Below are positions 4,924-57,286 of a stretch of 64,000 nt of DNA, piece by piece. How positions within the stretch are numbered: the stretch's first letter is position 1; every line of letters starts with the position of its first letter. Both the position numbers and the translations under genes were made by a program. The stretch is taken from assembly GCA_041671485.1 (NCBI GenBank), contig JBAZBL010000004.1, positions 14,445 through 78,444 of the forward strand, in the 5' to 3' direction. The DNA is from Minisyncoccota bacterium. Its GTDB lineage: Bacteria > Patescibacteriota > Minisyncoccia > Phycocordibacterales > PALSA-1337. The notes beneath the pieces are model-generated. The model was given only the letters and a program-made list of their open reading frames with translations. It had not been told where the DNA came from and made no database searches.

Positions 4924-5469
4924 CTACTTTTTACTAAACCCAATTGGTGCTTTCATGGGTACTGGTTCGTCAAGTAGGTGTTTGAGGATATTGAGAACTT
5001 TTATCAGTTGCTGGCCTTGTTTTTCTTGTTCAGATTCTAAAACTTTCATCTTTGCTGCCAATTCCTTGTGGGTAGCAAGCATTTCGCGTAATTTGATAAA
5101 TGCACGGACTACAAATACACTCACTTGTACCGCGCGAGGACTTTTCAAGACGGCAGACAACATCGTAACACCGTGTTCAGTGAAAGCATATGGCAAATAA
5201 CGGACACCTCCCCAACTTGAGGTCGCAAATTGCGACCTCAAGTTTTTGTATTCTTCATTTGTCAATTGAAACATGAAATCCTTGGGAAATCTATCGATAT
5301 TTCTTCGTACTTGTTCATTCAATCTCTTTGCACTCACACCATATAATCTAGCAAGGTCAGAATCTAACATTATTTTCTGTCCACGAATCAGAAAGATTCT
5401 ATGCTCAATAGATTCATCGGGAATAATCTGTAGATCCTTGGAATTATCAGACAATTTTAACTTTTTCAT
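4924..5469 (-). CDS. ORF6N-domain (KilA-N-like) protein, phage or mobile-element associated
   Basis: The IRGQK.MLDSDLA.LYGV..KRLNEQV.RN..RFP.DFMFQLT..E motif matches the ORF6N domain. Confidence 0.6.
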   Translation of the reverse strand: MKKLKLSDNSKDLQIIPDESIEHRIFLIRGQKIMLDSDLARLYGVSAKRLNEQVRRNIDRFPKDFMFQLTNEEYKNLRSQFATSSWGGVRYLPYAFTEHGVTMLSAVLKSPRAVQVSVFVVRAFIKLREMLATHKELAAKMKVLESEQEKQGQQLIKVLNILKHLLDEPVPMKAPIGFSKK

Positions 5470-5577
5470 GGCGACATTATAGCACAGAGAAAATCCACAT
5501 TATGAAAACTTGATTTTTTCGGTAAAAGTGTTATTATAGCGGTGTAGTATATAATAAATAAGACAAACTAAAATACT

Positions 5578-6168
5578 ATGTCAATATTAATACCAACAGT
5601 TATAGAGAAGAGCAATTTTGGCGAGAGGGCATATGATATCTATTCGAGGCTCTTGAAGGAGAATATTATATTCCTAGGCGGACCAATAGATGATCATATA
5701 GCCAATCTAGTTATTGCCCAGTTACTATTCTTGCAATCAGAAGATCCAAAGAAAGAGATCAATATGTATATCAATTCTCCGGGCGGAATGGTATCTGCTG
5801 GACTTGCAATAATAGATACAATGAATTCGATCAGGAATGATATTTCAACTCATTGTGTCGGTATTGCCGCATCTATGGCAGCAGTCATCGTTGCATCTGG
5901 TACAAAAGGGAAGAGATATGCATTGCCAAATGCAGAGGTTATGATACATCAGCCACATGGTGGGACAGAAGGACAAGCAACAGATATTGAAATTAGCGCA
6001 AAACATATCATAAAAATGAGAGAAAATCTGAACAAAATATTGGCAAAAGCTACAGGTCAAACATTGGCAAAGATAGAGAAAGATGTTGACAGAGACTTCT
6101 TCATGAGTGCAGAAGATGCAAAGAAATATGGCATTATAGACGATGTCTTGTCTCCAAACAAAAAATAG
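5578..6168 (+). CDS. clpP: ATP-dependent Clp protease proteolytic subunit
   Basis: Ser/His/Asp triad context (GxAASMA, HQP) and strong family similarity across 196 aa. Confidence 0.95.
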
Positions 6169-6173: not shown

Positions 6174-6887
6174 ATGAGACTTCATAGATTTTATTATAGA
6201 GAATTGATAGGGAATAGAAGTGAGATAACTATCAATTCTCTAGAAATTACGAAACAGATTCGTAGGGTTTTCAGATTGAAGACAGGAGATCTGGTTATAA
6301 TCTTTGATGGTTCTGGTTTTGACTATGTTTGCAAGATAAATAACTTCACAGAAGATACAATGAAGCTTTCTATCAATGAGAAGAATAGCAGTCGATACAT
6401 ACCAGAGAAAGATATTGTATTGTGCGTAGCAATAGTAAAGAAAGATACTTTTGAATGGATTGTAGAGAAAGCAACAGAACTAGGAGTAACAAATATAATA
6501 CCGATCATATCTGAAAGAAGTGAGAAGAAATCCTTGAATATAGAAAGACTAAAAAAGATATCAATAGAAGCTAGCGAACAGAGTGGTAGAGGACGTGTGC
6601 CAATAATTGAGCCTATTGTGTCACTAATAGAAGCAATAAATACCTATAAGGATCAATACGGAGGTCAGACCTCCGTATATGCGTTTCACACAGAAGGGGA
6701 TACTATACCGAGATCGGATCTCGGTAATGATAGAAAAATTGTCATATTTATTGGCCCAGAAGGCGGTTGGTCTCCATCTGAAATAGATATGTTTCACAAA
6801 GATAAAATATCCATACATTGTCTAGGTAAACAAATACTGCGCACCGAAACGGCTGTAATCGCTGTATTATCTAGATTTGTATTCTAA
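6174..6887 (+). CDS. rsmE: 16S rRNA (uracil1498-N3)-methyltransferase RsmE. It carries an in-frame ~70-nt GC-rich double-palindrome segment (6657-6726)
   Basis: PUA-like N-terminal domain plus SPOUT C-terminal domain with a GPEGGWS.E motif. Confidence 0.75.
   Translation: MRLHRFYYRELIGNRSEITINSLEITKQIRRVFRLKTGDLVIIFDGSGFDYVCKINNFTEDTMKLSINEKNSSRYIPEKDIVLCVAIVKKDTFEWIVEKATELGVTNIIPIISERSEKKSLNIERLKKISIEASEQSGRGRVPIIEPIVSLIEAINTYKDQYGGQTSVYAFHTEGDTIPRSDLGNDRKIVIFIGPEGGWSPSEIDMFHKDKISIHCLGKQILRTETAVIAVLSRFVF
6657..6677. repeat. 21-nt palindrome tacggaggtcagacctccgta inside rsmE. Its reverse-complement twin lies at 39915-39937, upstream of polA
   Basis: Exact match to the reverse complement of the polA-upstream copy. 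Confidence 0.8.
6705..6726. repeat. Second copy of the ataccgagatcggatctcggta palindrome, in-frame within rsmE
   Basis: 22/23 nt identical to 343-365. Confidence 0.8.
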
Positions 6888-14776: not shown

Positions 14777-14784
14777 TTCCTTGA

Positions 14785-14891
14785 AAGCAAGGCGCAATAT
14801 TGTATTTGTATGGAAATTAAAGTGGACGGAAGTACACAAAACACATCTAATAATTTAATTTCCATACAAATACAATATTGCGCCTTGCTTT
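14785..14891. repeat. Large perfect inverted repeat (37-bp arms, ~32-nt loop) between uvrD and rsmA
   Basis: aaagcaaggcgcaatattgtatttgtatggaaattaaa ... tttaatttccatacaaatacaatattgcgccttgcttt. Confidence 0.85.
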
Positions 14892-21213: not shown

Positions 21214-21651
21214 ATGCGTTTCCAAGTGCCCCAATTTATAGAGGTTGAAGACAAAATATTTGGTCCTTTGACTTTGAAACAGTTCATATACCTGGCGGGT
21301 GGAGGAGGACTTTCATTTGTTGCATATATACTCCTCGGAAGTCTGGCATTGTCACTAATACCAATACTTATAATAATGGCAATATCTGTATCTCTCGCTT
21401 TTTACAAAGTCTACAATCATTTTCCACTAGTAAATATAGCCGAATCAGCATTCAAATATTGGAGAGGTGGTAAATTGTATATATGGAAAAAAGAAGACAA
21501 GATGAAAGCAACAACAAGCGCTGCTGCATCAAAGGATGTAAAAAATTATGCTTCTCTAATGGTTCCAAAAATATCCGATAGCAAGTTGAAAGATCTTTCA
21601 TGGAGTTTGGATATCAAAGAGAGTATTTATTCCGATAAAAATCAAAAGTAG
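21214..21651 (+). CDS. PrgI/VirB3-like small membrane protein of Gram-positive-type T4SS
   Basis: VPQFIEVEDKIFGPLTLKQFIYLAGGG followed by a double TM hairpin matches the PrgI family. Its position directly upstream of VirB4 is canonical. Confidence 0.55.
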   Translation: MRFQVPQFIEVEDKIFGPLTLKQFIYLAGGGGLSFVAYILLGSLALSLIPILIIMAISVSLAFYKVYNHFPLVNIAESAFKYWRGGKLYIWKKEDKMKATTSAAASKDVKNYASLMVPKISDSKLKDLSWSLDIKESIYSDKNQK

Positions 21652-21684
21652 CACTGTGTCAAACAAAATATTAATTGAATAATC

Positions 21685-21712
21685 TTGGATCCCCGCTTTC
21701 GCGGGGATGACA
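21685..21712. repeat. 28-nt GC-rich hairpin repeat tggatccccgctttcgcggggatgacac, identical to the copy at 29800-29827
   Basis: Exact 28/28 match. The ATCCCCGC/GCGGGGAT stem is followed by an ATG that serves as a start codon here. Confidence 0.8.
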
Positions 21713-22354
21713 CCATTGAATATGACAACCAAATCCAAAACAACACAAGACTTTGTACCCATTCAGGAAATACGTGATGGTGTAGTAATACTCCGAAATG
21801 GTGGCATGAGATCTGTCATACTCGCATCATCATTAAACTTTGCACTCAAATCGGCTGATGAACAGGCATCTATCATGTATCAATTCCAGAATTTCCTCAA
21901 TTCACTGGACTTTTCTATACAAATATTTATACAATCAAAAAAGCTAGATATCAGGCCATATATCGCTCTTTTGGAAGAGAGATACAAAGAGCAAGTATCA
22001 GAACTTATGAAGATACAGGTGCGTGAATACATAGAGTTCGTAAGAACATTTGTCGAAAATACAAATATCATGACAAAGAATTTCTTTGTTGTTATACCTT
22101 ATGATCCGCCTATCATAGGTGGTGGCAAGAATCCTATCTCAAGATATTTTCCTGGGAAAGACAATGTTGGTCCAACACCAGATGAAAAATTCCAAGAATA
22201 TCGCACCCAGCTAGAACAGAGGGTTTCTGTTGTGGAACAAGGACTAGTGAGGTGTGGTGTCCGAACTGCAGAACTTGGTACCGAAGAAGTGGTCGAACTA
22301 TTTTATAAATTATTCAATCCAGGAGAGACAGAGAAGCCGATACAAATCACATGA
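21707..22354 (+). CDS. VirB4/TraC N-terminal-domain-like protein (separate ORF)
   Basis: The F.PIQEIRDGVV.LRNGG.R.V pattern resembles the N-terminal domain of VirB4/CagE ATPases. It ends 46 nt before the ATPase ORF, in a different frame. Confidence 0.45.
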   Translation: MTPLNMTTKSKTTQDFVPIQEIRDGVVILRNGGMRSVILASSLNFALKSADEQASIMYQFQNFLNSLDFSIQIFIQSKKLDIRPYIALLEERYKEQVSELMKIQVREYIEFVRTFVENTNIMTKNFFVVIPYDPPIIGGGKNPISRYFPGKDNVGPTPDEKFQEYRTQLEQRVSVVEQGLVRCGVRTAELGTEEVVELFYKLFNPGETEKPIQIT

Positions 22355-22400
22355 ACCATGCACAATTATTACATCATATATCAATAGAGCAATCAATAAT

Positions 22401-24215
22401 ATGAGCATATTCAATAAATTATTTGGTAAGAAAGATCAATCGCCGATTGTTTCGGTTTTGCCCGAAGAAATATATCAGGCGGGTATCTTGGAATTGAAAG
22501 ATGTAATAGCTCCGTCTGCACTCAAGGTCAGTCCAAAAGAATTGAACCTAGGAGAAAAGGTGGGTAGAACACTATTTGTAATATCATATCCACGATTCTT
22601 GCAAGAAAGTTGGTTTGCACCGATCATCAATCTGGACAAAGTATTCAACGTCTCTATCTTCATACATCCCGTTGATACTGCAAAGATATTGCGTCATTTC
22701 CAGAAGAAGGTTGCAGAGGTACAAAGCCAAATATCTAGAAGAGAAGAGAAGGGTTTGGTGCGTGACCCAGGACTAGATACAGCATATCAGGATCTCGAAT
22801 CGTTGAGAGATCAGTTGATGCAGGCTCAAGAGAGACTATTTGATGTAGGAGTATATATAACACTGTTTGCAGATTCCGAAGGAGATCTCGATAAACTCGA
22901 ATCTGAAATCAAATCTATACTTGAATCAAAACTAGTATATGTAAAACCAGCACTTTTCCAGCAAGAACAAGGATTCAAGAGCGTGTTGCCACTTGGAGAC
23001 GATCAATTGAATGTTCATTCAAAGCTCAATTCTTCACCACTTTCAAGTCTATTCCCATTTGTATCATTTGACCTAACGTCAGATAAGGGAATACTGTATG
23101 GCATAAATAGACACAATTCATCACTGGTTCTTTTTGACCGATTCCTTCTTGGTAACTACAACTCTGTAACATTTGCAGTTGCTGGGGCAGGCAAATCGTA
23201 TTGCACAAAGCTAGAGATATTACGCACGCTCATGTTTGATACAGATGTTCTAGTTATTGATCCAGAAAAAGAATATGAATACATGGCAGAAGCAACCGGT
23301 GGCAAATACTTCAATATTTCTCTCAATTCAGAGCACCATATCAATCCATTTGATCTACCAGTACCAAGAGAAGATGAATCTACAAGCGATGTTTTGCGAT
23401 CAAATATAATTAACTTGGTTGGTCTATTCAGGATAATGTTGGGTGGTCTGTCCCAAGAAGAAGATGCGATCATAGATCGTGCAATAACAGAGACTTATGC
23501 ACTCAAAGACATTACTCCTGATTCTGATTTTCGAAATGTTGAACCACCACTACTATCAGATTTTGAAATGGTACTGGGTGGAATGGAAGGCGCCGACTCT
23601 TTGGTTGAGAGATTGTCCAAATATACAAAAGGTACATGGTCGGGCTTTATAAATAGACCTTCAAATATAGATATAAATAAGAAATTTATAGTATTTTCTC
23701 TAAGAGATATGGAAGATGAATTGAAACCCGTAGCAATGTATCTCATAACTCACTATATATGGAATGCTATACGCAAAAATCTCAAGAAAAGACTACTTGT
23801 CATCGATGAAGCATGGTGGATGATGAAGTCCGAAGATACAGCATCATTTTTGTTTGGCCTAGCAAAAAGAGGTCGAAAATACTTCCTTGGTCTTGCAACA
23901 ATAACCCAAGATGTGGATGATTTCTTGAAATCTCCATATGGTATGCCCATCGTCACAAATTCATCTATACAGATACTATTAAAACAGTCGCCATCGGTCA
24001 TTGACTATGTACAGAAAACATTCAACCTTACAGATGAAGAAAAATATTTATTGCTAGAATCAGATATAGGAGAAGGCATGTTCTTCGTCGGACTAAAACA
24101 TGTTGCAATGAAAATAGTTAGTTCATATACAGAAGATCAGATCATCACCACAAATCCACAGCAAGTTATGGATATAAAGAGGGCAAAAAAAGAGCTTGAA
24201 GACGCGGGACAATGA
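22401..24215 (+). CDS. virB4: VirB4/TraE/TrsE-family type IV secretion ATPase (C-terminal ATPase portion)
   Basis: Walker A (FAVAGAGKS), Walker B (LLVIDEAWW) and strong VirB4-family resemblance. The probable start is the MSIFNK Met at 22401 rather than the upstream 22254. Confidence 0.8.
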   Translation: MSIFNKLFGKKDQSPIVSVLPEEIYQAGILELKDVIAPSALKVSPKELNLGEKVGRTLFVISYPRFLQESWFAPIINLDKVFNVSIFIHPVDTAKILRHFQKKVAEVQSQISRREEKGLVRDPGLDTAYQDLESLRDQLMQAQERLFDVGVYITLFADSEGDLDKLESEIKSILESKLVYVKPALFQQEQGFKSVLPLGDDQLNVHSKLNSSPLSSLFPFVSFDLTSDKGILYGINRHNSSLVLFDRFLLGNYNSVTFAVAGAGKSYCTKLEILRTLMFDTDVLVIDPEKEYEYMAEATGGKYFNISLNSEHHINPFDLPVPREDESTSDVLRSNIINLVGLFRIMLGGLSQEEDAIIDRAITETYALKDITPDSDFRNVEPPLLSDFEMVLGGMEGADSLVERLSKYTKGTWSGFINRPSNIDINKKFIVFSLRDMEDELKPVAMYLITHYIWNAIRKNLKKRLLVIDEAWWMMKSEDTASFLFGLAKRGRKYFLGLATITQDVDDFLKSPYGMPIVTNSSIQILLKQSPSVIDYVQKTFNLTDEEKYLLLESDIGEGMFFVGLKHVAMKIVSSYTEDQIITTNPQQVMDIKRAKKELEDAGQ

Positions 24216-29737: not shown

Positions 29738-29915
29738 AGTGAGATAAGTATTGCATTTTTATTATCTCCATGCAAATTAGAGAATCAATTCTCTAGACGT
29801 GGATCCCCGCTTTCGCGGGGATGACACAATAAAATAGTTCTCCACAGCTTATCAACATACTTTTGATGTCTCCACAAGTTCCCAAAATTATAAACAGGTA
29901 TATAATGCAAACAAT
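29738..29915. promoter_or_regulatory. dnaA upstream region with three co-oriented DnaA-box-like 9-mers and the 28-nt hairpin repeat; candidate oriC part 1
   Basis: TTCTCCACA (29838), TTATCAACA (29849) and GTCTCCACA (29868) against the TTATCCACA consensus. Confidence 0.5.
29800..29827. repeat. Second copy of the 28-nt hairpin repeat (see 21685)
   Basis: Exact match to 21685-21712. Confidence 0.8.
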
Positions 29916-31262
29916 ATGAATGACCATGAACAAATATGGCAAACAGCTTTGCTTGAGATGCAATCTATTGTTTCTTCGGCAAATTATTCTACATGGGTAA
30001 AGACAACAAAGATTGTACGCGAAGAGGGTGGTACTATTTTCTTGGGTGTTCCAAATGAATTTACACGACAGTGGTTATTGAAAAAGTGCCACAACTCTAT
30101 TTTGCGTATATTGAGACAATTGAATGAACACGTGAGGGCTCTTGAATACGTCGTTCTGCGAGATGAGGAGCAAAAAAGAGAAGAGGCCAGAAAGAAATCT
30201 TCATTGGCCCCGACAATGGCAATGCCTCTTGAAAATTACTATATCAATAAAGAAGATAATCTAAATTCTAGATATACTTTTGAGAATTTTGTTGTTGGCC
30301 CATTCAATGAGTTGGCCCATGCGGCTGCACATACGATAGTAAAAGCGCCTGGTCAGACGTACAATCCACTATTTATATATGGAGGTACAGGAAGGGGCAA
30401 AACTCATTTGATACAAGCAATAGGGAATAGAGTGAAGGAGCTTTTCCCAAATAAAAAAGTGTTTTATCTCACAGCCGAACGGTTTGGATCCGATTTTTTC
30501 GACGCACTTCAGACAAACAAGGCTCAACAATTCAAAGAAAAATACAGAAAGTACGATGTTTTGATAATGGACGATATCCAATTCTTTTCTAGTAAAGATA
30601 AATTCCAAGAAGAATTCTTCCACCTATTCAATGTTTTTCATGATAGCTCTAGACAATTGGTATTTTCGGCCGATCGCCATCCAAATATCATACCCGACCT
30701 CGAAGACCGTGTACGTGGCAGGTTCAATGCTGGTATGGTGATAGATATATCCGAATTGGACAAAGAATCACGCATGGCCATAATCAAGGCCAAATGTGCA
30801 ATGAGTAATATCACCTTGCTTGAAGAGATAGTTGACTATCTGGCTGTTGAAATTGAGGATAATATAAGAGAAATTGAAGGTATTATAAATATAATAACCC
30901 ATAATACTTTCCACAAAGGACGAGTTTTGAATCTAAATGAGATAAAGACTATACTAAAGAACAGCATAAAACCCAAAAAGATGCTCTCTGTAAAGGATGT
31001 AGTCAAAACTGTTTGCACTTTTTATAATATAGAGGAGGACAATATATATAGCAAAACTAGGAAAAAAGAGGTGGTTAAGCCACGTCAAGTGATTATGTAT
31101 ATTCTTAGAGAAGATTATAATATTTCATTCCCTTCAATAGGTGATAAACTTGGTGGTAGAGACCATACAACGATAATACACTCTTATGAAAAAGTTAAAG
31201 ATGATTTGAAAAGTGATAATTTACTAGCACAAGAAATATTACAATTAAGAACCATGCTTTGA
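29916..31262 (+). CDS. dnaA: Chromosomal replication initiator protein DnaA
   Basis: AAA+ motifs (GGTGRGKTHL; Walker B LIMDDIQF) and the C-terminal DNA-binding domain. Confidence 0.95.
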   Translation: MNDHEQIWQTALLEMQSIVSSANYSTWVKTTKIVREEGGTIFLGVPNEFTRQWLLKKCHNSILRILRQLNEHVRALEYVVLRDEEQKREEARKKSSLAPTMAMPLENYYINKEDNLNSRYTFENFVVGPFNELAHAAAHTIVKAPGQTYNPLFIYGGTGRGKTHLIQAIGNRVKELFPNKKVFYLTAERFGSDFFDALQTNKAQQFKEKYRKYDVLIMDDIQFFSSKDKFQEEFFHLFNVFHDSSRQLVFSADRHPNIIPDLEDRVRGRFNAGMVIDISELDKESRMAIIKAKCAMSNITLLEEIVDYLAVEIEDNIREIEGIINIITHNTFHKGRVLNLNEIKTILKNSIKPKKMLSVKDVVKTVCTFYNIEEDNIYSKTRKKEVVKPRQVIMYILREDYNISFPSIGDKLGGRDHTTIIHSYEKVKDDLKSDNLLAQEILQLRTML

Positions 31263-39869: not shown

Positions 39870-39914
39870 ATTGATATTATTATATCAGAAAAAGATATAT
39901 AGGTCAGAGACCTA

Positions 39915-39937
39915 TACGGAGGTCTGACCTCCGTGTA
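39915..39937. repeat. Palindrome tacggaggtctgacctccgtgta, twin of the rsmE-internal copy, 10 nt upstream of the polA ATG. It is preceded by a second palindrome, aggtcagagacct
   Basis: Direct reading; reverse complement of 6657-6677. Confidence 0.8.
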
Positions 39938-39947: not shown

Positions 39948-42521
39948 ATGGATAAAAATAATGATCGAAATAGACTAGTTCTTCTAGATGTACATGCAAT
40001 ATTACATCGTGCATATCATGCTTTACCAGACTTCATGACAGCGAAAGGTGAGCCAACAGGAGCATTATATGGTCTTTCTTCTATGCTTATCAAGATTATT
40101 GACGATTTGAAGCCAGACTATCTCATAGCTTGCTATGATGTAAAAGGTCCAACTCATAGGCATGAATTGTATAAAGCTTATAAAGCCGACAGGAAAAAGG
40201 CTGAAGATGATCTCATAAAGCAGATAATCAAGTCTCGCGAAGTATTCATTTCTCTCAATATTCCTATATATGATAAACAAGGCTTTGAAGCGGATGATAT
40301 TTTGGGGACGATCGTTGAGAAGATCAAAAATCAAAAATCAAAAATAAAAGATAAAGGACAGAACGCGGGATTAGAAATAATTATTGCATCGGGAGATATG
40401 GATACGATGCAATTGGTAAAAGGGGATGATGTAAAAGTATATACTCTCAAAAAGGGTATAAATGACACAATTATTTATAATGAAAATGCTGTAAATAAAA
40501 GATTTGGTTTTGGTCCAGAATTGATACCAGATTACAAAGGATTGCGCGGAGATCCGTCTGACAATATTCCCGGTATCAAAGGAATTGGTGAAAAGACAGC
40601 AACTATACTTATTCAAAGATTTGGAAAGATTGAAAATATATTTCATGAATTGGAATTGGGTCATAAAGAAGAATTTGAGAAAATTGGTATTACACCTAGA
40701 ATGATAAAGATTATCGAGGAGAATAAAGAAGAAGCGGAATTTAGCAAAATGCTTGCCACGATAAATAAAGATGTGCCTATAGATTTTGAATTACCCACCA
40801 AAACATTCAAAGAAAATATTGATTCGAAGAAAATAGGGGATCTGTGGCGCGAATTAGAATTTAGAACATTGCCACAGAGGTTTGAGAAAGTTATTGGGGG
40901 ACTGTTTACAGGACGAAACCTTGAAGATATGGTTCCTTCACCCACTTCGCCCCGCGACTCCGCAAATATGGCTTCCTCACCCACGATCGGCCTCGCCGAC
41001 ACTGACAAAACGCTCGGCGAGGCCGTCTTTTCTCGGCGGGGATTGTCGGGCGATAGAACTATTGGTCTCCACCCCGCCTCCGAAGAGGGTTCGGAAGCCA
41101 TATTTGCGGAGTCGCGGGGCGAAAACGACAAATCATTCAAACAAACAGCAATTGCATTGTGGCTTCTGAATTCGAATACTACGAATCCAAAAATGGAAGA
41201 TGTGTTAAATTTTGCAGGCACAAATGATTTTGATCAAGCTAGTAAGATCATATTCAAAGAAATAGATCAAAAGGGATTGAGAAAAGTTTATGATGATATA
41301 GAATTGCCACTTATCGACACAATAGACAAGATGGAAAAGAGAGGAATCAAAATTAATAAGAGTATATTCGGAGAATTATCAAAAAAATATCATATAGAAC
41401 TTGAAATTCTAGAGAAAAAAATATGGGATATTGCTGGGTGTGAATTTAATATCAATTCACCCAAACAATTGGGAGAACTATTGTTCGATAAACTTGGTCT
41501 CAAGATAAAAAATGCAAAGAAAACAGGAGGAGGAGCGCGCTCTACGAGAGAATCAGAATTGGAAAAGATGGTGGATATGCATCCGATAATTAATTTTATA
41601 TTCCAATATCGTGAATTAGCAAAATTATTGTCTACATATATTGATGCAATACCACCACTTTTGGATGCAAATAACAGATTGCATACACATTTCTTGCAAA
41701 CAGGCACGACAACTGGACGAATGGCATCGCAAGATCCAAATATGCAGAATATTCCTATTAGATCGGACTATGGTAAAGCGATAAGAAAAGGGTTTGTTGC
41801 GGAAGAGGGTTTTAAATTAGTCGCTTTTGATTATTCACAGATGGAATTACGAATATCAGCATTTCTTTCTCTGGATGAAAAATTGATTGAAATATTCAGA
41901 AACGGAGAAGACGTACATACTTCTGTGGCATCTTTTGTATTTGGTGTTGATCATTCAAGTGTTACTAAAGAGATGAGGAGAAAAGCAAAAGTAATTAATT
42001 TTGGAATTTTGTATGGTATGGGAGTAAATGCATTGAAACAAAATTTAAAGACGAGCAAAGAAGAAGCACAAAAATTCATGGATGATTATTTCAGAACATT
42101 CAGTGGACTTGCAAGCTATATAGATAAAGTAAAAAGTGAAACTGCCAATCGTGGTTATACAGAGACATTTTTTGGACGCAGGAGATATTTCGAAGGTATA
42201 AAATCTAGAATTCCATATATCAAAGCGCAAGCCGAGCGTATGGCCATAAATGCACCCATTCAAGGCACAGAAGCAGATGTGATAAAGCTTGCAATGGTAA
42301 AAATAGAAGAATATTTTAGGCGTGAGGATATAGAGAATGATGCATTTCTCTTGCTTCAAGTGCATGATGAACTCATATGTGAGGTAAAAGAAGATATTAG
42401 AGAGAAAGTTTCTAGGGACATTAAAAATATCATGGAATCTATAATAGATCCAAAAGATATTTCTGGAATTGTTTTGTCTGTTGAGGTGGCGATCGGCAAT
42501 GATTGGGGAGAACTCAAATGA
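39948..42521 (+). CDS. polA: DNA polymerase I (5'-3' exonuclease plus polymerase domains), carrying a 174-nt in-frame GC-rich palindromic element
   Basis: N-terminal FEN/5'-nuclease motifs (LLDVHAILHRAYHA; EADD) and C-terminal pol motifs A/B/C (DYSQMELR; KAKVINFGILYG; QVHDEL). Confidence 0.9.
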   Translation: MDKNNDRNRLVLLDVHAILHRAYHALPDFMTAKGEPTGALYGLSSMLIKIIDDLKPDYLIACYDVKGPTHRHELYKAYKADRKKAEDDLIKQIIKSREVFISLNIPIYDKQGFEADDILGTIVEKIKNQKSKIKDKGQNAGLEIIIASGDMDTMQLVKGDDVKVYTLKKGINDTIIYNENAVNKRFGFGPELIPDYKGLRGDPSDNIPGIKGIGEKTATILIQRFGKIENIFHELELGHKEEFEKIGITPRMIKIIEENKEEAEFSKMLATINKDVPIDFELPTKTFKENIDSKKIGDLWRELEFRTLPQRFEKVIGGLFTGRNLEDMVPSPTSPRDSANMASSPTIGLADTDKTLGEAVFSRRGLSGDRTIGLHPASEEGSEAIFAESRGENDKSFKQTAIALWLLNSNTTNPKMEDVLNFAGTNDFDQASKIIFKEIDQKGLRKVYDDIELPLIDTIDKMEKRGIKINKSIFGELSKKYHIELEILEKKIWDIAGCEFNINSPKQLGELLFDKLGLKIKNAKKTGGGARSTRESELEKMVDMHPIINFIFQYRELAKLLSTYIDAIPPLLDANNRLHTHFLQTGTTTGRMASQDPNMQNIPIRSDYGKAIRKGFVAEEGFKLVAFDYSQMELRISAFLSLDEKLIEIFRNGEDVHTSVASFVFGVDHSSVTKEMRRKAKVINFGILYGMGVNALKQNLKTSKEEAQKFMDDYFRTFSGLASYIDKVKSETANRGYTETFFGRRRYFEGIKSRIPYIKAQAERMAINAPIQGTEADVIKLAMVKIEEYFRREDIENDAFLLLQVHDELICEVKEDIREKVSRDIKNIMESIIDPKDISGIVLSVEVAIGNDWGELK
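40948..41121. mobile_element. 174-nt GC-rich element with perfect 29-bp terminal inverted repeats, in-frame within polA (RPE/MITE-like)
   Basis: Left arm cgccccgcgactccgcaaatatggcttcc (40948-40976) is the exact reverse complement of the right arm (41093-41121). The length is a multiple of three and inner palindromes are present. Confidence 0.7.
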
Positions 42522-43775: not shown

Positions 43776-43849
43776 GCGCCCATAGCTCAGCCTGGTAGAG
43801 CACCTGCCTTTTAAGCAGAGGGTCGAAGGTTCAAATCCTTCTGGGCGCA
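43776..43849 (+). tRNA. tRNA-Lys (anticodon UUU)
   Basis: Acceptor GCGCCCA/TGGGCGC, D-arm GCTC...GAGC, anticodon loop CTTTTAA, T-arm GAAGGTTCAAATCCTTC, discriminator A; CCA is not encoded. Confidence 0.85.
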
Positions 43850-45424
43850 CCCTTCGCTAGATTTTATAAACATGTTGGAAGCTATAGGTTTCTTCGTATT
43901 TTGGCTTTTTTGTGATGCATGTTCTAGCTTCAAAAGTTGGTCAAAAAGTAGGGAGGGATTTGATTTTATTATAAGTCCATCGGTAACTTGGAAATTGTTC
44001 CAAAAGAATCCGAGATATTGTCTTTTGAGAGCGTCTGAAGCTTTTTGATATGCGTCATAAATATTTCTTGTGAGGTTCAGGATTTCTTGGGCAATATCGA
44101 CATTCACATTCTTCTGTTTCTCAAGTTCTATCAATCTATCGTCTATGTTTTGGATTTCTTGGTCTATTTCGGTCTTTACTCTCGTGAAGTCATTATCGGA
44201 AATGATATTTGAAAATAACTTTTCCTCCGCCACCTTTCTTTTGATTTCATAAGCCGTTCGTTGATTGATACATTCCTTTCTTCTGCTGTCATACGCCTTG
44301 CGCCGTTCATAGAAGATAACTTTTGCTTTGCTTATTACCATATCAATGAATGTTTGGCTGAATTCTATGGTCTTGAATTTCTCCGCGACCATGTCTTCTA
44401 GCTTGCCGACTTCAATGTATTTGCCACAACCCGACTGATTGGTGCAATGATAGTATGCTTTGCTCTTATTCAAATGCCATTCTGCGGAGTAACGACATTC
44501 ATGTGTATAACAACGGATGAAACCGCTCAAAAGCCAAGAGTATTTCCTCCTACGACAAGCGTGTTTGTTTTTCGCCATGATTACTTCTTGCACCTTGTTG
44601 AATAACTCCTCGCTTATAAGAGGTTCATGCTTTCCAATTTTGATGTGAATATCGCTCCAATGTACTTCGCCAATGAAAAACCTATTTTTCAGTGTGTTAT
44701 AGAGCTGGGCGTCAGATCGTTTACCACCATGTTTTGTCTGTAACCCTTTCTCAAACATAATGTCGTTTAGTTCGTAAACATTGTAATTGCCCGTTGCGTA
44801 CAGTTTGAACGCTTCCTTGACCAATGGTCCGTCATGTGGGTCAACGATAATACTTTTCTGACCAAAACGTCCGATAGATAAATTGGGGGTGCTGACATTT
44901 TTGTAGCCGACTGGAGCCATGCAAGGGTAGTAGCCCGCTTTGGCTTTTTCTTTCATTGTCATACTCACTTTTTCGGAAGTAATATCTCTATGAAATTGAT
45001 TCATTGACGCCATGACAGTGCCGACCATTTTGGAAGTCGCGGAATCATCCATATCTGGTTGCTGAATACACTTAACCAACACCCCATTTTTACGGAACAA
45101 ATCCATGAGGTTGAGATGGTCTAGGGTGTTACGAGCCAATCGGTCGCTGTGGACGACATAGATAGCGCCGATAGACTTTGCCAAGACAAGTTTGATGACT
45201 TGCTGAATGCCTGGTCTTTTCAAAGTACCAGCACTTTTGCCTTCATCTTTTATAACTTCTAATATTGAATATCCGTCATTTGTAGCGTCTTCGGTACAAA
45301 TATTTTCCTGTGATTCAATCGAAAGTCCTGTACTAGCTTGGTCATCAGTAGAAACACGGCAGTAAATTACTGCAGTCTTTTTGACGGCTTCTGATTGGTT
45401 TTCAACTCTTTGTATTGGTGTCAT
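43811..45424 (-). CDS. Large serine recombinase (resolvase/invertase N-domain, recombinase domain, zinc ribbon, coiled coil)
   Basis: N-terminal catalytic-Ser region (AVIYCRVSTDDQ) and a long C-terminal extension. The last 13 codons run antisense across the tRNA-Lys 3' half. Confidence 0.85.
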   Translation of the reverse strand: MTPIQRVENQSEAVKKTAVIYCRVSTDDQASTGLSIESQENICTEDATNDGYSILEVIKDEGKSAGTLKRPGIQQVIKLVLAKSIGAIYVVHSDRLARNTLDHLNLMDLFRKNGVLVKCIQQPDMDDSATSKMVGTVMASMNQFHRDITSEKVSMTMKEKAKAGYYPCMAPVGYKNVSTPNLSIGRFGQKSIIVDPHDGPLVKEAFKLYATGNYNVYELNDIMFEKGLQTKHGGKRSDAQLYNTLKNRFFIGEVHWSDIHIKIGKHEPLISEELFNKVQEVIMAKNKHACRRRKYSWLLSGFIRCYTHECRYSAEWHLNKSKAYYHCTNQSGCGKYIEVGKLEDMVAEKFKTIEFSQTFIDMVISKAKVIFYERRKAYDSRRKECINQRTAYEIKRKVAEEKLFSNIISDNDFTRVKTEIDQEIQNIDDRLIELEKQKNVNVDIAQEILNLTRNIYDAYQKASDALKRQYLGFFWNNFQVTDGLIIKSNPSLLFDQLLKLEHASQKSQNTKKPIASNMFIKSSEGCAQKDLNLRPSA

Positions 45425-45677
45425 GTTGTTTTTCCTCTTTAACGATATCTAACTTGTCTTCAAGCTCCTCAAAGTTTGAATACATCTTGTCCTCAATATC
45501 TGCGAGGCGTGAATATATCCTACTTTCAATGGCGTCCATTCGTTCCTCAAGTCGCTCAAAGCTACGACCGATAGCGACAGCGACTTCATCGGTACTCTTG
45601 TAAAGAATGTGCTCGATTAATTCCAAGTCCTTTTTTGTAAGGTTATTTTTGTCTGTGATTATATTTTCTTTGTTCAT
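45402..45677 (-). CDS. Hypothetical small coiled-coil protein upstream of the recombinase
   Basis: 91 aa, co-oriented, overlaps the recombinase start. Confidence 0.35.
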   Translation of the reverse strand: MNKENIITDKNNLTKKDLELIEHILYKSTDEVAVAIGRSFERLEERMDAIESRIYSRLADIEDKMYSNFEELEDKLDIVKEEKQHDTNTKS

Positions 45678-45807
45678 TGAAGTATTTTTTAATCTAGTAA
45701 TACCTACATTTACCCCATATCTGCCCTATATTTTTATGGTGAATTTGACATGATAGTAAGCTAGTGTCTTTATATTTTATAAACTTACAAAGTAATATCA
45801 ACCATAG

Positions 45808-45816
45808 TTATCCACA
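45808..45816 (+). promoter_or_regulatory. Perfect consensus DnaA box TTATCCACA within the element's intergenic region
   Basis: 9/9 match, in a 345-nt non-coding spacer that also carries iteron-like repeats. Confidence 0.5.
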
Positions 45817-46023
45817 CTTGGTGGCTCAACAGAGCCGTATTATTAGATGAATTATTAGATTCTAATAACCATACTGAGCCTTTAGGTCTTCCTCCTTTAT
45901 GATTTGTTCCTGCTCTTGCCATAGATTGATTGAAAACAATAAAACATTATTCTTAGATTCTAATAATTCATTAAATGTAGGAAACTATTAACACACAGGG
46001 CTGTCTTTACTTTATTGATTCAA

Positions 46024-47646
46024 TCAATAAAGGGAATCAGCACCTGTGTCTTCAGTCGTTGTATCCTCTGAAACAGTAGGCGGTAATGTTGGGAGTCCTC
46101 GAATAGCTCTACATTCTTCGCTTAGGAACCATGCAAAGTCCTTGGATAGATGGAGTTTCTTTTCAGGTTCACCAACAAAACCATCACTTTCTGCTGTAAC
46201 ATTTGCGATATGAAGTATTTTGAGAGTCTCCATCTCTGTGTGAGCAGTGGGTGTGGAACATTGTAGCGATGCTTTAACTTCATGAGTTCTCATAAGACCG
46301 TTGTTCAAAAGCAAAGCTCGAAATAATTTCGCTCGCGTAGTCGGCGCACTTTCGATTGCAAGCTCAACAGCCAAGCGCAAATCGTCAGGCGATATCTGTT
46401 TTCTACCACATAGCACGGCGTGTCCTCTGCATAGGTTGTATAGTAACTGAGTAATTCGGTCAGGATTTTCGATAGTGGGAGGGTGATATTTATAAGATAC
46501 TTCGTTTGAACCAGAGGTTTTTTCCTGTACATAAATTACGCCACGCAGTTTTGCTAGTAATTTTGCACAACGTGCGATTATCTTTATATACAGGTGATCA
46601 TCTCTTTCTCTATTCCACTCCACACCATCAGGGTTTTTAGACCAGAGAGTGTGTAATAAATCTTTGGTTGCCTCTCTACACACCCTTTCCTTATCCTTAG
46701 TGGAACGGGTAATAATCTGCTCTGCAAGCTCATCCTCACTTTTTTCTTTTGTTCCCATGTTTAGGAAAAACAGTCTTGAACCAATATTACCCATCACTTT
46801 CCATACTCGTGGCTGGATTGGTGTTGACGCCGCCAACATCATGAATAGGTAATCACCAAGATAACCACGTTGTCCGTGAGTTCCTGAGTCAGTACTTAGA
46901 CCTTGACCATCAAGCACTCTGGTCAAAAGTCCAAGCGATTCGTTGAGAGAGTCATCACTCTTGGAAAAAATTGTTGCCAAATCTCGAATGAGAAGTGCTT
47001 TATATCTGATACGAAGTAACAAATCTATCCCAGCCAAATCCTCCTTTTTGATATTTGATGCATTTGAGACGAAAGATGCAGGTGTAAACTTATCGGTTGA
47101 GTAAGTGATGCCTTCAATTTGGTCAAAAAAGTTTAGTGTGATGGTTTTCCCAGATGAGGGCACATCAACAAGTACTAATGCGAATGGATTAGTTATTTCT
47201 GTAATGAGAATCTGCACAATAACGGACGCGGCGACTTCTGCTGGGAACATCAAGCCATGGAAATTTGTTTCTATCGTACTACTCCACTCATCGAATGAGA
47301 CTTCACGAGTAGGTTTATCAATTTTTATAATTCGTTTAGCTGGCGGAGGTGGCTCTTGTTTGGAAGTCTCCTCACTATTGTTTCTTTTTCCTTTGGAATA
47401 CTTTTTGCGTGGCTCGCTTACTTCTTCCTTATCTGATATTCCTAATTTTTCTAACCATACCTCTTTACCAACTGTTATTTGGCATTCACCACATTCACCG
47501 CGACTTGTATCCGGGTTAATCATAAAGGTCATGTCTAGATGTTTTGGTGCGCATTCCTGATCGCGATACGGACAATCGATATAAATCAAGCCTTCTGATA
47601 TAGCATTGAGTATATTATTGTCATTTAGTAATTTAATGATATTCAT
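46024..47646 (-). CDS. Mobile-element replication-associated P-loop NTPase (primase/helicase-like) with an N-terminal Cys-cluster
   Basis: CPYRDQEC...CGEC zinc-finger-like N-terminus and a P-loop (VDVPSSGKTITL). Its context, next to an integrase and iterons, supports the call. Confidence 0.4.
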   Translation of the reverse strand: MNIIKLLNDNNILNAISEGLIYIDCPYRDQECAPKHLDMTFMINPDTSRGECGECQITVGKEVWLEKLGISDKEEVSEPRKKYSKGKRNNSEETSKQEPPPPAKRIIKIDKPTREVSFDEWSSTIETNFHGLMFPAEVAASVIVQILITEITNPFALVLVDVPSSGKTITLNFFDQIEGITYSTDKFTPASFVSNASNIKKEDLAGIDLLLRIRYKALLIRDLATIFSKSDDSLNESLGLLTRVLDGQGLSTDSGTHGQRGYLGDYLFMMLAASTPIQPRVWKVMGNIGSRLFFLNMGTKEKSEDELAEQIITRSTKDKERVCREATKDLLHTLWSKNPDGVEWNRERDDHLYIKIIARCAKLLAKLRGVIYVQEKTSGSNEVSYKYHPPTIENPDRITQLLYNLCRGHAVLCGRKQISPDDLRLAVELAIESAPTTRAKLFRALLLNNGLMRTHEVKASLQCSTPTAHTEMETLKILHIANVTAESDGFVGEPEKKLHLSKDFAWFLSEECRAIRGLPTLPPTVSEDTTTEDTGADSLY

Positions 47647-47927
47647 ATTATTTAATTATTTTTAATAAGTTTTCCTTCTTCTCCTTTTCCATTTCGTCAA
47701 TGTGAGCAACTAAAATTTCTGACAATGTTGATATAGCCGTCTCAAAAATATTGTCCGTAGTCTTATCGACCTCTTTATTTTTTATTTGATTTTTTTCCAT
47801 AAAGAAAAGTACCCTTAAACAATAGGGTACTTGACTATGTATTACAACTATGGTGTGGTCAGTTAAACACTTCTTATGTGTCCTATGTGGATAAGACGAT
47901 TTTGTAAGATTATATAGTTATTCATGG

Positions 47928-48866
47928 CTAAAAAAAGACTATATCTTTTGGTTCATTTAGCCCAATATCATGTCCATAGACTATTTGTTTTTTAATATTA
48001 TCTGGTATCTGTTTTCCTGTTCCTAATAATTTCCTATACTTACTTCCAGCTCGTGATGATGCTCTTCTCAAACTGTCAGGAAGTCTTTTTATCTTATCTG
48101 AATATGCCCTGACCACATCTTCTATTCTTAGCCTCTGCCCTTGTTTCCCATATATGCTATTTTTCAAATCTTTAATTTCTATCCACCTATGCACGATTTC
48201 CTCTTTTGTTGTAAGACCTGAAATCTCAAAAGAGATGGTTGGTTCGTAACCGCCTCTATTATTTTTTAACTGTAAATTAATAACTGATGAATGGCGGGGC
48301 AAGTACCAGTCACCCGTTAGCAATAGAACAACTATTGATTCATACCAACAATATTCAAGACCATAATCTTTCATAAGACTAAGAAGATTTTTATTAAATC
48401 TATATGGCATATAGTCAATTGTTATTTTATTGTTTTTATATTTCTGCTCACATGCAATTAGCCAAAAAACATATTCTAATTTTGCATGCCAGACATTAAG
48501 TATGGGTAGGAAAGCAAAACCAAAGTCGAACCTGTCAAACTTGTATTTGAATCTTAGCAAATCATTTGCTTCAGCAAACTTTAACAGATCGCGGATAAAT
48601 CCTTTTTTATTTAGGACAACGACAGCTACATTTAAAAAGAACTTATTTAATTGTTTTCTATAGTCTTTATCTTTTTCGAACTCAGGCAGAATAGATGGTC
48701 TGATCAATTGTTTAATATCTTTATCTATAAGATTTTTGAACTTTTCTTCCTTTGTTGTGGGTATTTCATAAATACTATACATCCATTTTAGGGAGTTTAG
48801 TTGTGATTTTGTTGGAATTCCTGAGATTGACATGATAATGGGTATGTTTATACTTGGTTCTTTCAC
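47928..48866 (-). CDS. Hypothetical protein (element cargo)
   Basis: 312-aa ORF with no recognisable family. Confidence 0.35.
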   Translation of the reverse strand: MKEPSINIPIIMSISGIPTKSQLNSLKWMYSIYEIPTTKEEKFKNLIDKDIKQLIRPSILPEFEKDKDYRKQLNKFFLNVAVVVLNKKGFIRDLLKFAEANDLLRFKYKFDRFDFGFAFLPILNVWHAKLEYVFWLIACEQKYKNNKITIDYMPYRFNKNLLSLMKDYGLEYCWYESIVVLLLTGDWYLPRHSSVINLQLKNNRGGYEPTISFEISGLTTKEEIVHRWIEIKDLKNSIYGKQGQRLRIEDVVRAYSDKIKRLPDSLRRASSRAGSKYRKLLGTGKQIPDNIKKQIVYGHDIGLNEPKDIVFF

Positions 48867-49304
48867 GTAGAACTAAGTTATAACACATTCAAACTCGCTT
48901 TTGTATGGGTAACACTATTCTATCAAAATATTGTTTAAAAACATTAAAACAATCTTTTCTTAGAATCTAATAACTCGCTTTATCCGACATATATCATAGC
49001 TCTATCATAGGTCTTTCCAGTAACATCCAGTAACATTCATGGTTTTTTTATCTTTGAATCTTAGGTTTTCTTAGGTTCTTCAGAGTTATTCACAAAATAC
49101 TGTTTAGTGCTATTATAAGGCTACAACTGAATATGTAAGTAACCTAACCCAGTAAGCAATTGCTGGTATGGTGAAAAAGTCCTGACACGGATAAAGAACC
49201 CATCATATGGGGTTGCCGTGTCAGGCTATATCAGGAAACTGGTATAGAGGGCTTCGGTCCTCACCCATGTGGTGGGCTTTTTGCGTTCACTTCTTTAAAT
49301 ATTT

Positions 49305-49901
49305 ATGAAAAAGAAAAATCTAAATATACCAAAACCGTCACCAGAAGAAGTCCAGTACTATCTGAATTTTTGGGATTCTAATGCTGATCTTAAATTATCT
49401 GATAGTAGTCTAAAATATTTATTTTCGAAAACCTATCCGCAGAACAATAATCTTGAAGAAGTACTTATAAAGGTGTGTACACTGAAAAGTTTGTTTGGTT
49501 TGATTATATTTTCACCAATCACAGTTGCTAAGCATATCATATCCCTAGAAATAGACAGCAAATTTTTGAAAGACGACCTAATGATAGTAAATGAAATTGC
49601 TTCGGTTAATATCAGTACAAATAGAATCATTAACTTCTATTCATTTGCAACAAAATACTGTAGTTTTCATAAGCCAAATATATATCTTAAATATGATTAC
49701 CATGTATCAAAACTACTTAAGCATCATGAACAGACGGATAAATTTGATGAATTTACAGAGATGGAATTAAGATACTACGATAAATATCACGAAGTCTTCA
49801 TAAATTTTAGAAAAAAATATGGACTAGATCTATTTAGTTTAGAACAGATTGAAAGATACTTATATTTAGCAGGTAAAAAATATTTTCCTCAAAATTATTA
49901 G
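49305..49901 (+). CDS. Hypothetical protein (element cargo)
   Basis: 198-aa ORF, preceded by a structured leader with a terminator. Confidence 0.35.
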   Translation: MKKKNLNIPKPSPEEVQYYLNFWDSNADLKLSDSSLKYLFSKTYPQNNNLEEVLIKVCTLKSLFGLIIFSPITVAKHIISLEIDSKFLKDDLMIVNEIASVNISTNRIINFYSFATKYCSFHKPNIYLKYDYHVSKLLKHHEQTDKFDEFTEMELRYYDKYHEVFINFRKKYGLDLFSLEQIERYLYLAGKKYFPQNY

Positions 49902-49908
49902 AAATTTT

Positions 49909-50418
49909 ATGAATCCTAAAGAATACTATTACAACCGCTTTCGCCCCCAGTTTGATGAATGGATAAGTAAATTATCTTTACAGGGTTTTGTATTGGGTAT
50001 TTACAGAAATATTCCTATTCAATTCCTGCGAAAAGAAAATCTCTCGCACATTCCTCCAAAAGACTATATGTCGTTCTATCATGCACTTGCATACACTGTT
50101 TTAATTGATCAGGTCATGTATACCTACTTTAGGAAAGATTATCCGAAATTTGAGCAAATGACACATTATCCGAAAATTGAGTACGGATTAAGCAATACAT
50201 ATGCTCGCCCCTGGGATATTTCACATGGTAGCGGTGGTATTACAACATTTGAACAGTTTGCTGAATTTTTTGTTGTAGATATTAAGCAGTTTTTTACTGA
50301 TTACAAGTTTGAAACAGCGACATGGAACACAGTAAAGAAAGCAATGCTTAGTGATGAAGATGTTGTAGGTGGTTCACAAGGAGAAATCTTTAGAAAAACG
50401 TTAGAGAAAATAAAATGA
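49909..50418 (+). CDS. Hypothetical protein (element cargo)
   Basis: 169-aa ORF, 8 nt downstream of the previous gene. Confidence 0.35.
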   Translation: MNPKEYYYNRFRPQFDEWISKLSLQGFVLGIYRNIPIQFLRKENLSHIPPKDYMSFYHALAYTVLIDQVMYTYFRKDYPKFEQMTHYPKIEYGLSNTYARPWDISHGSGGITTFEQFAEFFVVDIKQFFTDYKFETATWNTVKKAMLSDEDVVGGSQGEIFRKTLEKIK

Positions 50419-50493
50419 TATCCACACAAAGGTTGATGTTTCTAATATAAGTATTTAATATATAAAAATGTGGATAACCTTACTTGAAATTAT

Positions 50494-51009
50494 ATGAATG
50501 AAAATAACAACATAACAAATGAACACGAAAAAATAAAAAACCTTGAATCAAAGATTTGGTTTCGTCTTCTAAAGGTAATTTTTATTTTTGTGTATCTAGC
50601 TATATTTTTATTTCTATTAGTTTTTGCGTACTCTAGTAAACCCTATGCTATCATTGATGAGTATAATTCAGTGATTGTGTGTGATAATGGAACGAGATAC
50701 AAAGCTGGAGATAATGGTATTAATGCCGAAGAAGCATGGGCTGAACAATTAGGTGCCACAAGGGTAGACCTAAATGGACTTACTCCAACAAAAATACAAG
50801 CAACACATTTATGCCTAGGTTATTCTGAAGGAAAGATTGGCTTTATTCCTGATATACCTCCCTATAAAGTAGAGATAGTGAGAAAGACTGTAGGGGATTG
50901 GAGTAGTTTTATTGGGTATACCGCTTTAGTATTATTCGTTACTATTATTGTCTTTGAGTTAGTCAAGCGATCTTTCTTCTATATTGTACTTGGGAAAAGG
51001 TTTTTTTAG
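50494..51009 (+). CDS. Hypothetical membrane protein
   Basis: 171 aa with two hydrophobic helices. Confidence 0.35.
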   Translation: MNENNNITNEHEKIKNLESKIWFRLLKVIFIFVYLAIFLFLLVFAYSSKPYAIIDEYNSVIVCDNGTRYKAGDNGINAEEAWAEQLGATRVDLNGLTPTKIQATHLCLGYSEGKIGFIPDIPPYKVEIVRKTVGDWSSFIGYTALVLFVTIIVFELVKRSFFYIVLGKRFF

Positions 51010-51018
51010 ATAATTAAT

Positions 51019-51927: not shown

Positions 51928-51944
51928 ATCCCTAACAATCAAAC

Positions 51945-54612: not shown

Positions 54613-54619
54613 GATAATA

Positions 54620-57285: not shown

Positions 57286-57286
57286 T

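Follow-up and report, generated by a model that had tools for sequence, protein, structure and literature searches.

In Neisseria, a short dispersed repeat, the Neisseria Transformation Sequence (NTS, CGTCATTCCCGCGMAVGCGGGAATCYRG), extends the old dRS3 repeat and is recognized by SsnA, a single-domain GIY-YIG protein of 94 amino acids (Chenal et al. 2025, PMC11893778). SsnA binds the NTS solely as single-stranded DNA (ssDNA), and on just one of the strands, and its cut falls a few nucleotides upstream of the motif; the protein does not act on double-stranded DNA (dsDNA) or RNA. In N. meningitidis, SsnA reduces transformation by NTS-bearing DNA. Mutagenesis in the same study identified a GTC 5' of the palindrome as critical for cutting and the C just 3' of it as critical for binding. 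The wider family is captured by a degenerate search pattern for the Ssn-related motif (SRM), HGTCWYN(0-2)YYVSBRHN(0-5)WNVSBRGN(0-2)RNCYNB; inverted motif copies typically flank ssn genes, and SRM-flanked ssn genes are found in other phyla, for example in Rhizorhabdus wittichii and Wolbachia (PMC11893778). Here, we describe two identical 28-nt hairpins in a 64,000-nt stretch of a Minisyncoccota bacterium (contig JBAZBL010000004.1, positions 14,445 to 78,444, hereafter the window), one located in a type IV secretion system (T4SS) operon and the other between rpmH and dnaA. Both are probably solo copies of the NTS/SRM hairpin that arrived by a mobile-type process, have no regulatory role specific to either locus, and carry an ATG that is incidental.

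The window contains exactly two copies of the 28-mer TGGATCCCCGCTTTCGCGGGGATGACAC, each on the plus strand and each between genes. A first-pass annotation of the sequence had already noted the pair; its position for copy 2 (29800-29827) holds, while copy 1 occupies 21686-21713 and not 21685-21712, a shift of one base. Allowing up to three mismatches reveals no further site in the window, a set of 100 shuffles contained 0 matches, and no occurrence of the 28-mer is expected in the window by chance. Read on the minus strand, the repeat becomes TGTCATCCCCGCGAAAGCGGGGATCCA. As features, the hairpins span 21685-21713 (minus strand, TGTCATCCCCGCGAAAGCGGGGATCCAA) and 29799-29827 (minus strand, TGTCATCCCCGCGAAAGCGGGGATCCAC, ending in CCAC), each including the exact 28-mer. 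The 8-bp stem (ATCCCCGC/GCGGGGAT) with its 4-nt loop had been drawn correctly; in copy 1, the two arms lie at 21689-21696 and 21701-21708 and the loop reads GAAA on the minus strand. The hairpin is stable on both strands, as RNA (about -18 to -21 kcal/mol for a 61-nt segment, z -2.5 to -3.8) and as DNA (-10.2 to -11.4 kcal/mol for a 41-nt segment, z -3.9 to -4.8). Its minus-strand core, d(GCGAAAGC), is reportedly an unusually stable DNA mini-hairpin in the work of Hirao and colleagues, which fits a role in single-stranded DNA. As the window has a GC content of only about 37%, the hairpin is compositionally foreign to it. Weak similarity between the two copies reaches past the 28-mer, covering 53 nt at 81% identity. 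The copies are 8.1 kb apart, which is not significant as clustering (roughly p = 0.19 by simple geometry) within the approximately 81 kb in view, namely the window together with 8.4 kb to its left and 8.9 kb to its right. Since the region is 100% identical in three independent samples, the hairpins are not an assembly artefact. The organism is present in samples ERZ27249449, SRR18595301 and SRR6484324.

A full-text search with fragments of the motif led to the published description of the family (PMC11893778). On its minus strand, copy 2 fits the SRM pattern exactly, and copy 1 misses it at the last base only; simulated windows contained 0.07 pattern matches on average. Each copy differs from the Neisseria NTS consensus at four positions, two of which constitute a single compensatory change of a T:A to a C:G stem pair. 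A profile built from 217 family instances recovers both copies with nhmmer (E=1.7e-10 for copy 1, E=9.8e-11 for copy 2). The same profile finds no degenerate extra copies in the window and, among the relatives, only the inverted doublet of L201/L202, to which we return below. The GTC and C bases critical for cutting and binding are intact in both window copies.

The resemblance extends to the overall form. The NTS/dRS3 of Neisseria, like the window copies, is a 28-nt semi-palindrome that is intergenic, oriented and stable as an ssDNA hairpin, and both follow one layout, consisting of a GTCAT head, a 6-nt GC core (CCCGC/GCGGG), a GMAV loop (here GAAA) and an ATC-YR tail. In contrast to the NTS, the window stem has a C:G pair in place of T:A (ATCCCCGC versus ATTCCCGC), its first base is T and not C, and its last base is A or C and not G. 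The hosts differ as well, the window being derived from a 37% GC genome of the Paceibacterota, within the candidate phyla radiation (CPR), that shows two copies and no ssn within 81 kb. Whereas SRMs elsewhere flank ssn, the window copies are solo and do not adjoin such a gene.

Similar habits are known from the repetitive extragenic palindromes (REP/REPIN) with their REP-associated tyrosine transposases (RAYT) and from bacterial interspersed mosaic elements (BIMEs). Like SRMs, these are short intergenic palindromes acting as ssDNA hairpins; REP/REPIN elements also occur as singlets and inverted doublets (compare the L201 doublet), flank one small nuclease gene, and show presence/absence polymorphism among relatives. 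Unlike them, SRMs are paired with a GIY-YIG nuclease and not with an HUH/Y1 transposase. REPs are lineage-specific, whereas the SRM sequence is nearly identical across phyla, and mobility of the REP-like kind is only putative for SRMs. We rejected membership in the REP/REPIN-RAYT group, as no Y1_Tnp domain is found among the window genes and the gene linked to the motif elsewhere is of the GIY-YIG type. At Rfam gathering thresholds, nothing is reported at either copy. The Francisella small RNA (sRNA) FtrB (RF02748) scores 23.1 and 21.7 bits (E = 0.11 and 0.22) against a gathering threshold of 66, and the copies are not members of this family. The 115-nt FtrB model contains an SRM-like hairpin, GTCATTCCCGCGTAGGCGGGAATC, and it is because of this hairpin, the only part shared with the window copies, that the weak sub-threshold matches appear on the minus strand.

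Beyond the window, the motif is near-invariant across phyla. We used a relaxed pattern, GGATCCCCGCNNNNGCGGGGATGAC, in which stem and flanks are kept and the loop is freed, leaving 21 specified bases; by our estimate, which assumes equal base frequencies, about 0.3 matches would be expected by chance in the 596-Gb genome collection. The pattern matches 73 viral contig stretches and at least 120 genome contig stretches. Hosts among the matches listed are Alpha-, Beta-, Gamma- and Deltaproteobacteria, Planctomycetes, Gemmatimonadota, Omnitrophota, Cloacimonadota, Chloroflexi, Hydrogenedentota and four Patescibacteria. Loops of the matches are mostly CTTC, CTGC or TTTC. The flanks of the family instances are conserved (position -1 is T in 89% of them, position -2 is C or A, and position +1 is G or A), and their consensus recovers the head and tail of the NTS. 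The exact 28-mer is present in at least 119 metagenome stretches with a GC content of 0.30-0.70. According to the first-pass annotation, many copies scattered without positional preference would make the hairpin just another dispersed repeat; this is largely what we observe, across bacteria in general.

In Rhodopseudomonas pentothenatexigens (L081, 5847-7310), six motif copies follow one another in the same orientation at a spacing of about 310 nt, as a tandem array of a longer hairpin-containing unit. With regard to repeat arrays in general, the stem CCCCGC..GCGGGG raises the idea of a solitary CRISPR-repeat-like unit of type I-E, serving as a decoy or as a regulatory element resembling a CRISPR RNA. 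The sole point for this idea is the likeness of the hairpin to CGGTTTATCCCCGCTGGCGCGGGGAACAC, which we take to be the type I-E repeat of E. coli and Salmonella. The window copies, 8.1 kb apart, do not form an array, no tandem or regularly spaced repeats were found, and no cas genes are present among the annotated window genes. Moreover, the fetched loci show the motif either scattered or on the flanks of a GIY-YIG gene, and not arrayed at intervals of about 60 nt. A CRISPR origin is thus almost certainly wrong.

The motif is physically linked to Ssn-type genes. A hidden Markov model (HMM) was built from 10 small GIY-YIG open reading frames (ORFs) adjoining the motif and was used to scan 312 motif-fetched loci (2.16 Mb). 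Ssn-type ORFs were detected in 18 of these loci (E 1e-27 to 1e-51), and 17 of the 18 have the motif no more than 250 nt from the ORF, in most cases to its left and right. In these 17 loci, the flanking motif is the C:G variant identical to that of the window. The C:G and T:A variants also occur together in one ssn cassette. This linkage includes low-GC Patescibacteria. Contig L320 (38% GC) carries the exact 28-mer together with an Ssn-type ORF, and its nuclease cluster is annotated as Candidatus Staskawiczbacteria. The layout SRM(+)-ssn(+)-SRM(-) is present in a Staskawiczbacteria metagenome-assembled genome (MAG, GCA_026395295.1) and in a Patescibacteria MAG (GCA_018818145.1), at a GC content of 0.37-0.41, and the ORFs of these cassettes match Pfam GIY-YIG. 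On the strength of these cassettes, the Ssn/SRM system is present, with the very sequence of the window, in low-GC CPR bacteria, which belong broadly to the same group as the organism of the window. Ten of the 73 viral stretches contain an Ssn-type ORF, so that such elements could be vehicles of cross-phylum spread.

Two further observations concern individual ssn loci. On a 16-kb contig classified as viral (L029, IMGVR_UViG_3300009177_001485), an SRM-flanked ssn gene (5297-5581) lies beside HK97-type capsid and portal genes, and the contig may represent a phage or a gene-transfer-agent-like cluster. In L320 (4909-5205) and likewise in L326-L328, ssn is called at 76-87 amino acids, with the expected N-terminus (MGAKSYYV...) in another frame. 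This short form is found on at least 17 contigs of the Staskawiczbacteria type and suggests, as judged from the reading frames, a frameshifted or pseudogenised nuclease.

Within the window, copy 1 is situated at the junction of two T4SS genes. It lies 35 nt past the stop codon of a PrgI-family gene (21214-21651, plus strand; Pfam PF12666, E=1.9e-10) and overlaps the ATG at 21707, which had been annotated as the start codon of the gene for the VirB4 N-domain. This ATG does open the ORF 21707-22354, yet it is probably not the true start, since the N-termini of the homologues align at the in-frame ATG 21722. From there, the N-terminus MTTKSKTTQDFVP lines up with the first residues of homologues (MVAKSQTTQDFVP and others). 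Starting at ATG 21707 adds five residues, and the same holds for the equivalent SRM-borne ATG in L201. From the alignment with the N-termini of four homologues, the TraC-like (VirB4 N-domain) gene, whose identical product is annotated PF26593, probably spans 21722-22354 on the plus strand, with the hairpin ATG being incidental; most likely, ATG 21707 was picked since gene callers choose the longest ORF. For annotation, this means that the hairpin ATG misleads gene callers and extends the traC-like ORF by five codons.

To place the junction in context, we compared six relatives with a DnaA identity of 77-82% (the P0005 and P0007 contigs by their gene tables alone). All six retain the gene order prgI, traC-like, virB4, yidC, rnpA, rpmH and dnaA. 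VirB4 is encoded by two genes (21722-24215 in the window), a TraC-like N-domain of about 210 amino acids and a P-loop part of about 604 amino acids. As the window and all six relatives (L197, L199, L201 and L332 among them) share this split, it is genuine and conserved and not a frameshift. In five of the six relatives, the gap between prgI and the traC-like gene is at most 3 nt (e.g. TAAccGTG, TAAaATG, TAAcATG), an abutting arrangement that suggests translational coupling; the window, in comparison, has a 70-nt spacer containing the SRM. The insert therefore parts genes that abut in relatives and sets a strong hairpin 9 nt before the likely start, where a side effect on translation is possible.

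In L201/L202, the 72-nt spacer contains an inverted pair of SRMs (TGTCATTTTCGCGAAAGCGGGAAT and its reverse complement) with outward-facing heads, an arrangement like that of an ssn cassette from which the gene is missing. This doublet can be aligned with the window spacer: both have TGTCA 5 nt after the stop codon, and both have ATGACAC followed by 8 nt and the ATG, while 10-nt and 7-nt deletions set the left half of the window spacer apart. The TGTCA at 21657-21661 (plus strand), aligned with the head of the left SRM of L201/L202, would be the remnant of a left-hand, oppositely oriented SRM. The window insert is thus a probable decayed doublet with an intact right copy. The SRM copies of L201 are degraded; both window copies are perfect. 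In a tree of seven proteins, the window groups with the SRM-less L197 (198 of 200 bootstraps), and L201 groups with the SRM-less L199 and L332. Therefore, either two insertions occurred at the same spot, or one old insertion was followed by several clean losses.

A hairpin at this position could also be read as an element of the transcript, that is, a terminator, an attenuator or an mRNA-stabilising structure of the REP-like kind that separates prgI from the traC-like gene. RNA of either strand forms a stable stem-loop, and SRM-like hairpins can be transcribed, as in FtrB. However, no T-run follows the stem on either strand and a terminator scan reports neither copy, so that neither resembles an intrinsic terminator. 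The abutting of the two genes in relatives suggests translational coupling, where no terminator is expected, and copy 2 lies between divergent promoters and not at the 3' end of a gene. We consider an RNA function of this type very unlikely.

Copy 2 resides in the spacer between rpmH (ribosomal protein L34; 29603-29737, minus strand; Pfam PF00468) and dnaA (29916-31262, plus strand; Pfam Bac_DnaA and related domains), the latter encoding a protein identical to one annotated in a Candidatus Paceibacterota MAG (DnaA accessions MFA6404624.1 and MFA6974696.1). The Pfam genes and the 9-mers bear out the earlier placement of this copy in the rpmH/dnaA region and among DnaA-box-like motifs. The hairpin lies 10 nt upstream of two DnaA-box-like 9-mers (29838-29857, plus strand; TTCTCCACA at 29838 and TTATCAACA at 29849, one mismatch each), which are conserved in relatives and sit directly downstream of the insertion point. 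As had been pointed out, its ATG at 29821 opens a short frame only (next ACA CAA TAA). A dnaA promoter-like site (29879-29906, plus strand, TTCCCA-16-TATAAT), likewise conserved in relatives, follows downstream. Copy 2 is located upstream of this site and of the -35 of an rpmH promoter-like site, both being consensus matches only, and probably falls outside both predicted divergent transcripts.

The alignment of spacers delimits a 52-nt block (29777-29828) that is absent from the L201 spacer. It is composed of an AT-rich palindrome (TAGAGAAT-CA-ATTCTCTA, 29778-29795) followed by SRM copy 2. At the same point, the L201 spacer is empty and otherwise alignable. Among the other relatives' spacers compared (L197 8340-8495, L199 9740-10000, L332 9670-10000), the insert is a different 29-nt palindrome that re-uses the adjacent GCAAG in L197, a set of inverted repeats (each arm about 40 nt long) in L199, and two long inverted repeats accompanied by an ATGACA/TGTCAT pair in L332. 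This insertion point collects palindromes, and the SRM is not a conserved part of the origin/promoter region. At both loci, the hairpin shows presence/absence polymorphism.

These comparisons bear directly on the regulatory link proposed in the first-pass annotation, in which a shared regulator or RNA-level control would co-ordinate the T4SS ATPase genes with dnaA or the origin through a common cis-element, either an operator or an RNA structure. The copies are identical, share one orientation and both stand upstream of plus-strand genes; furthermore, an RNA hairpin 9 nt before the likely traC-like start could affect translation initiation. Yet the closest relatives, in which the genes, the DnaA boxes and the promoter are all conserved, lack the hairpin at their orthologous sites, and for this reason a conserved operator or RNA switch is not supported. 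In addition, neither predicted transcript includes copy 2, unrelated genomes and contexts share this 28-mer, among them the metagenome contigs counted above, and Ssn binds neither RNA nor dsDNA (PMC11893778). A shared regulatory element is accordingly highly improbable. The other option raised at the time, a mobile hairpin, was essentially right, the element being a member of the NTS/SRM dispersed hairpin family, whereas the suggestion that it supplies a start codon probably fails. A look at related genomes, as had been recommended, shows the closest relatives to be without the hairpin at both loci, with the junction doublet of L201/L202 as the counterexample.

Several points weigh against solo copies of a mobile type without a local role. 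An SRM occupies the exact same prgI/traC-like position in two non-sister lineages, which could mean selection, and the contrast between perfect window copies and degraded L201 copies fits selection as well as recent arrival. Neither an Ssn-type ORF nor further SRM copies were found in the approximately 81 kb in view, and RAYT and cas genes were likewise absent from the window and from the sequence beyond its two ends. Within the window, the Ssn HMM gave nothing significant (the best hit, E=0.022, is a 309-amino-acid ORF lacking the GIY-YIG motif), and phmmer with an approximate E. coli YhbQ query found no ssn. As two copies are seen in about 81 kb, a multicopy state at the level of the genome is putative. 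The linked proteins are called Ssn-type from Pfam GIY-YIG, size and cassette layout alone; a structure search with them retrieved distant UPF0213 structures only, and no Ssn structure was found in the copy of the PDB searched. Their assignment to CDD cd10448 (GIY-YIG_unchar_3) and a specific homology to N. meningitidis SsnA are putative. Finally, the biological role of Ssn/SRM outside Neisseria is, by their own account, not known to the authors who described it (PMC11893778).

Some of the same facts would be expected if the copies were inert relics, left by a past invasion or a lost cassette in a genome without Ssn and with no present activity. The absence of ssn within 81 kb and the finding of two copies only agree with this, as do the decayed appearance of the left half of the junction doublet, the degraded copies of L201, and the ssn of the Staskawiczbacteria type that looks frameshifted or truncated. 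On the other hand, the two window copies agree perfectly across all 28 nt and have kept their stems and critical flank bases intact, and a GC-rich palindrome under no constraint would be expected to decay at a genomic GC content of 37%; the view of about 81 kb also covers a minor part of that genome. We regard relics as rather unlikely, though well worth bearing in mind.

In a more far-reaching proposal, single SRMs and SRM-SRM doublets would be active derivatives of the SRM-ssn-SRM cassette in Patescibacteria, comparable to miniature inverted-repeat transposable elements (MITEs), that transpose via ssDNA at preferred intergenic sites by insertion or precise excision. Such activity would explain both the occupancy of the junction at the same offset in two non-sister lineages and the palindrome-collecting rpmH-dnaA spacer. 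We offer it as speculation and think it improbable.

Returning to the favoured interpretation as solo NTS/SRM copies, we postulate the following course of events. The functional strand would be the minus strand of the window, 5'-(T)GTCAT-CCCCGC-GAAA-GCGGGG-AT-C-CA-3'. In the bacteria studied, an Ssn of about 95 amino acids of the GIY-YIG type recognizes the motif as ssDNA only, attaching to the hairpin and cutting the strand a few nucleotides to its 5' side (PMC11893778). In these bacteria, the motif also flanks ssn as inverted copies in a cassette resembling an insertion sequence and accumulates as dispersed intergenic copies. Both window copies are likely to have arrived by a process of the mobile-element type, the junction insert as a miniature SRM-SRM doublet that has since decayed, and the dnaA-proximal copy at a site that is taken by other palindromes in relatives. 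Should another part of the genome encode an Ssn, this nuclease would be predicted to bind the minus strand whenever that strand becomes single-stranded, during replication, recombination, DNA uptake or transfer. Cuts would then fall a few nucleotides to the 5' side of TGTCAT, around 21714-21722 and 29828-29836 (plus-strand coordinates). Neither copy would have a regulatory role specific to its locus.

The window contains other repeats and features of interest. Two short palindromic families are each represented by two copies, namely ATACCGAGATCGGATCTCGGTA in exact form at 343-364 and 6705-6726, and TACGGAGGTC(A/T)GACCTCCGTA at 6657-6677 and 39914-39934. Both are unrelated in sequence to the SRM, and the genome thus harbours several hairpin repeat families. 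A perfect 38-nt inverted repeat (14784-14821 and 14854-14891, with a 32-nt spacer) separates the genes for a UvrD-like helicase and an rRNA adenine dimethylase. Within the polA ORF (39948-42521), a GC-rich palindromic element of about 180 nt (40946-41123) has 37-nt arms that are 95% complementary and a DNA fold of -72 kcal/mol (z -12.8). It leaves the frame open between the 5'-3' exonuclease and polymerase domains, resembling the in-frame palindromic insertions of Rickettsia (RPE). A large serine recombinase gene (43811-45424, minus strand) overlaps the end of a tRNA (43776-43849). Behind it, in the region 43776-56000, the GC content is 0.32-0.34, the ORFs mostly have no Pfam match, and a LOOT RNA is found at 49141-49262; this low-GC block is possibly an integrated element. 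At about 56236-58396, judging by the gene table for L331, a contig that overlaps the window, an EcoRI-type methylase gene adjoins a GmrSD_N/HNH gene, and the two may form a restriction-modification or defence pair.

Taken for what it is, the element belongs to a recently described kind and does not amount to a new regulatory link. This disposes of a tempting but mistaken idea, that of a dedicated connection from a type IV secretion operon to the replication origin. At the same time, Ssn/SRM, described in 2025 mainly for Pseudomonadati, is placed in the ultra-small Patescibacteria, in which the motif has the sequence seen in Proteobacteria despite a 37% GC background. The junction, filled in two non-sister lineages and empty in others, together with doublets that have the geometry of the ssn cassette, provides a handle on how SRMs spread, a question to which the site near the origin where palindromes land is also relevant. 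If the MITE-like proposal were true, Ssn would be a new, GIY-YIG type of hairpin transposase, and Ssn cut sites would lie beside oriC and inside the T4SS operon of an episymbiont.

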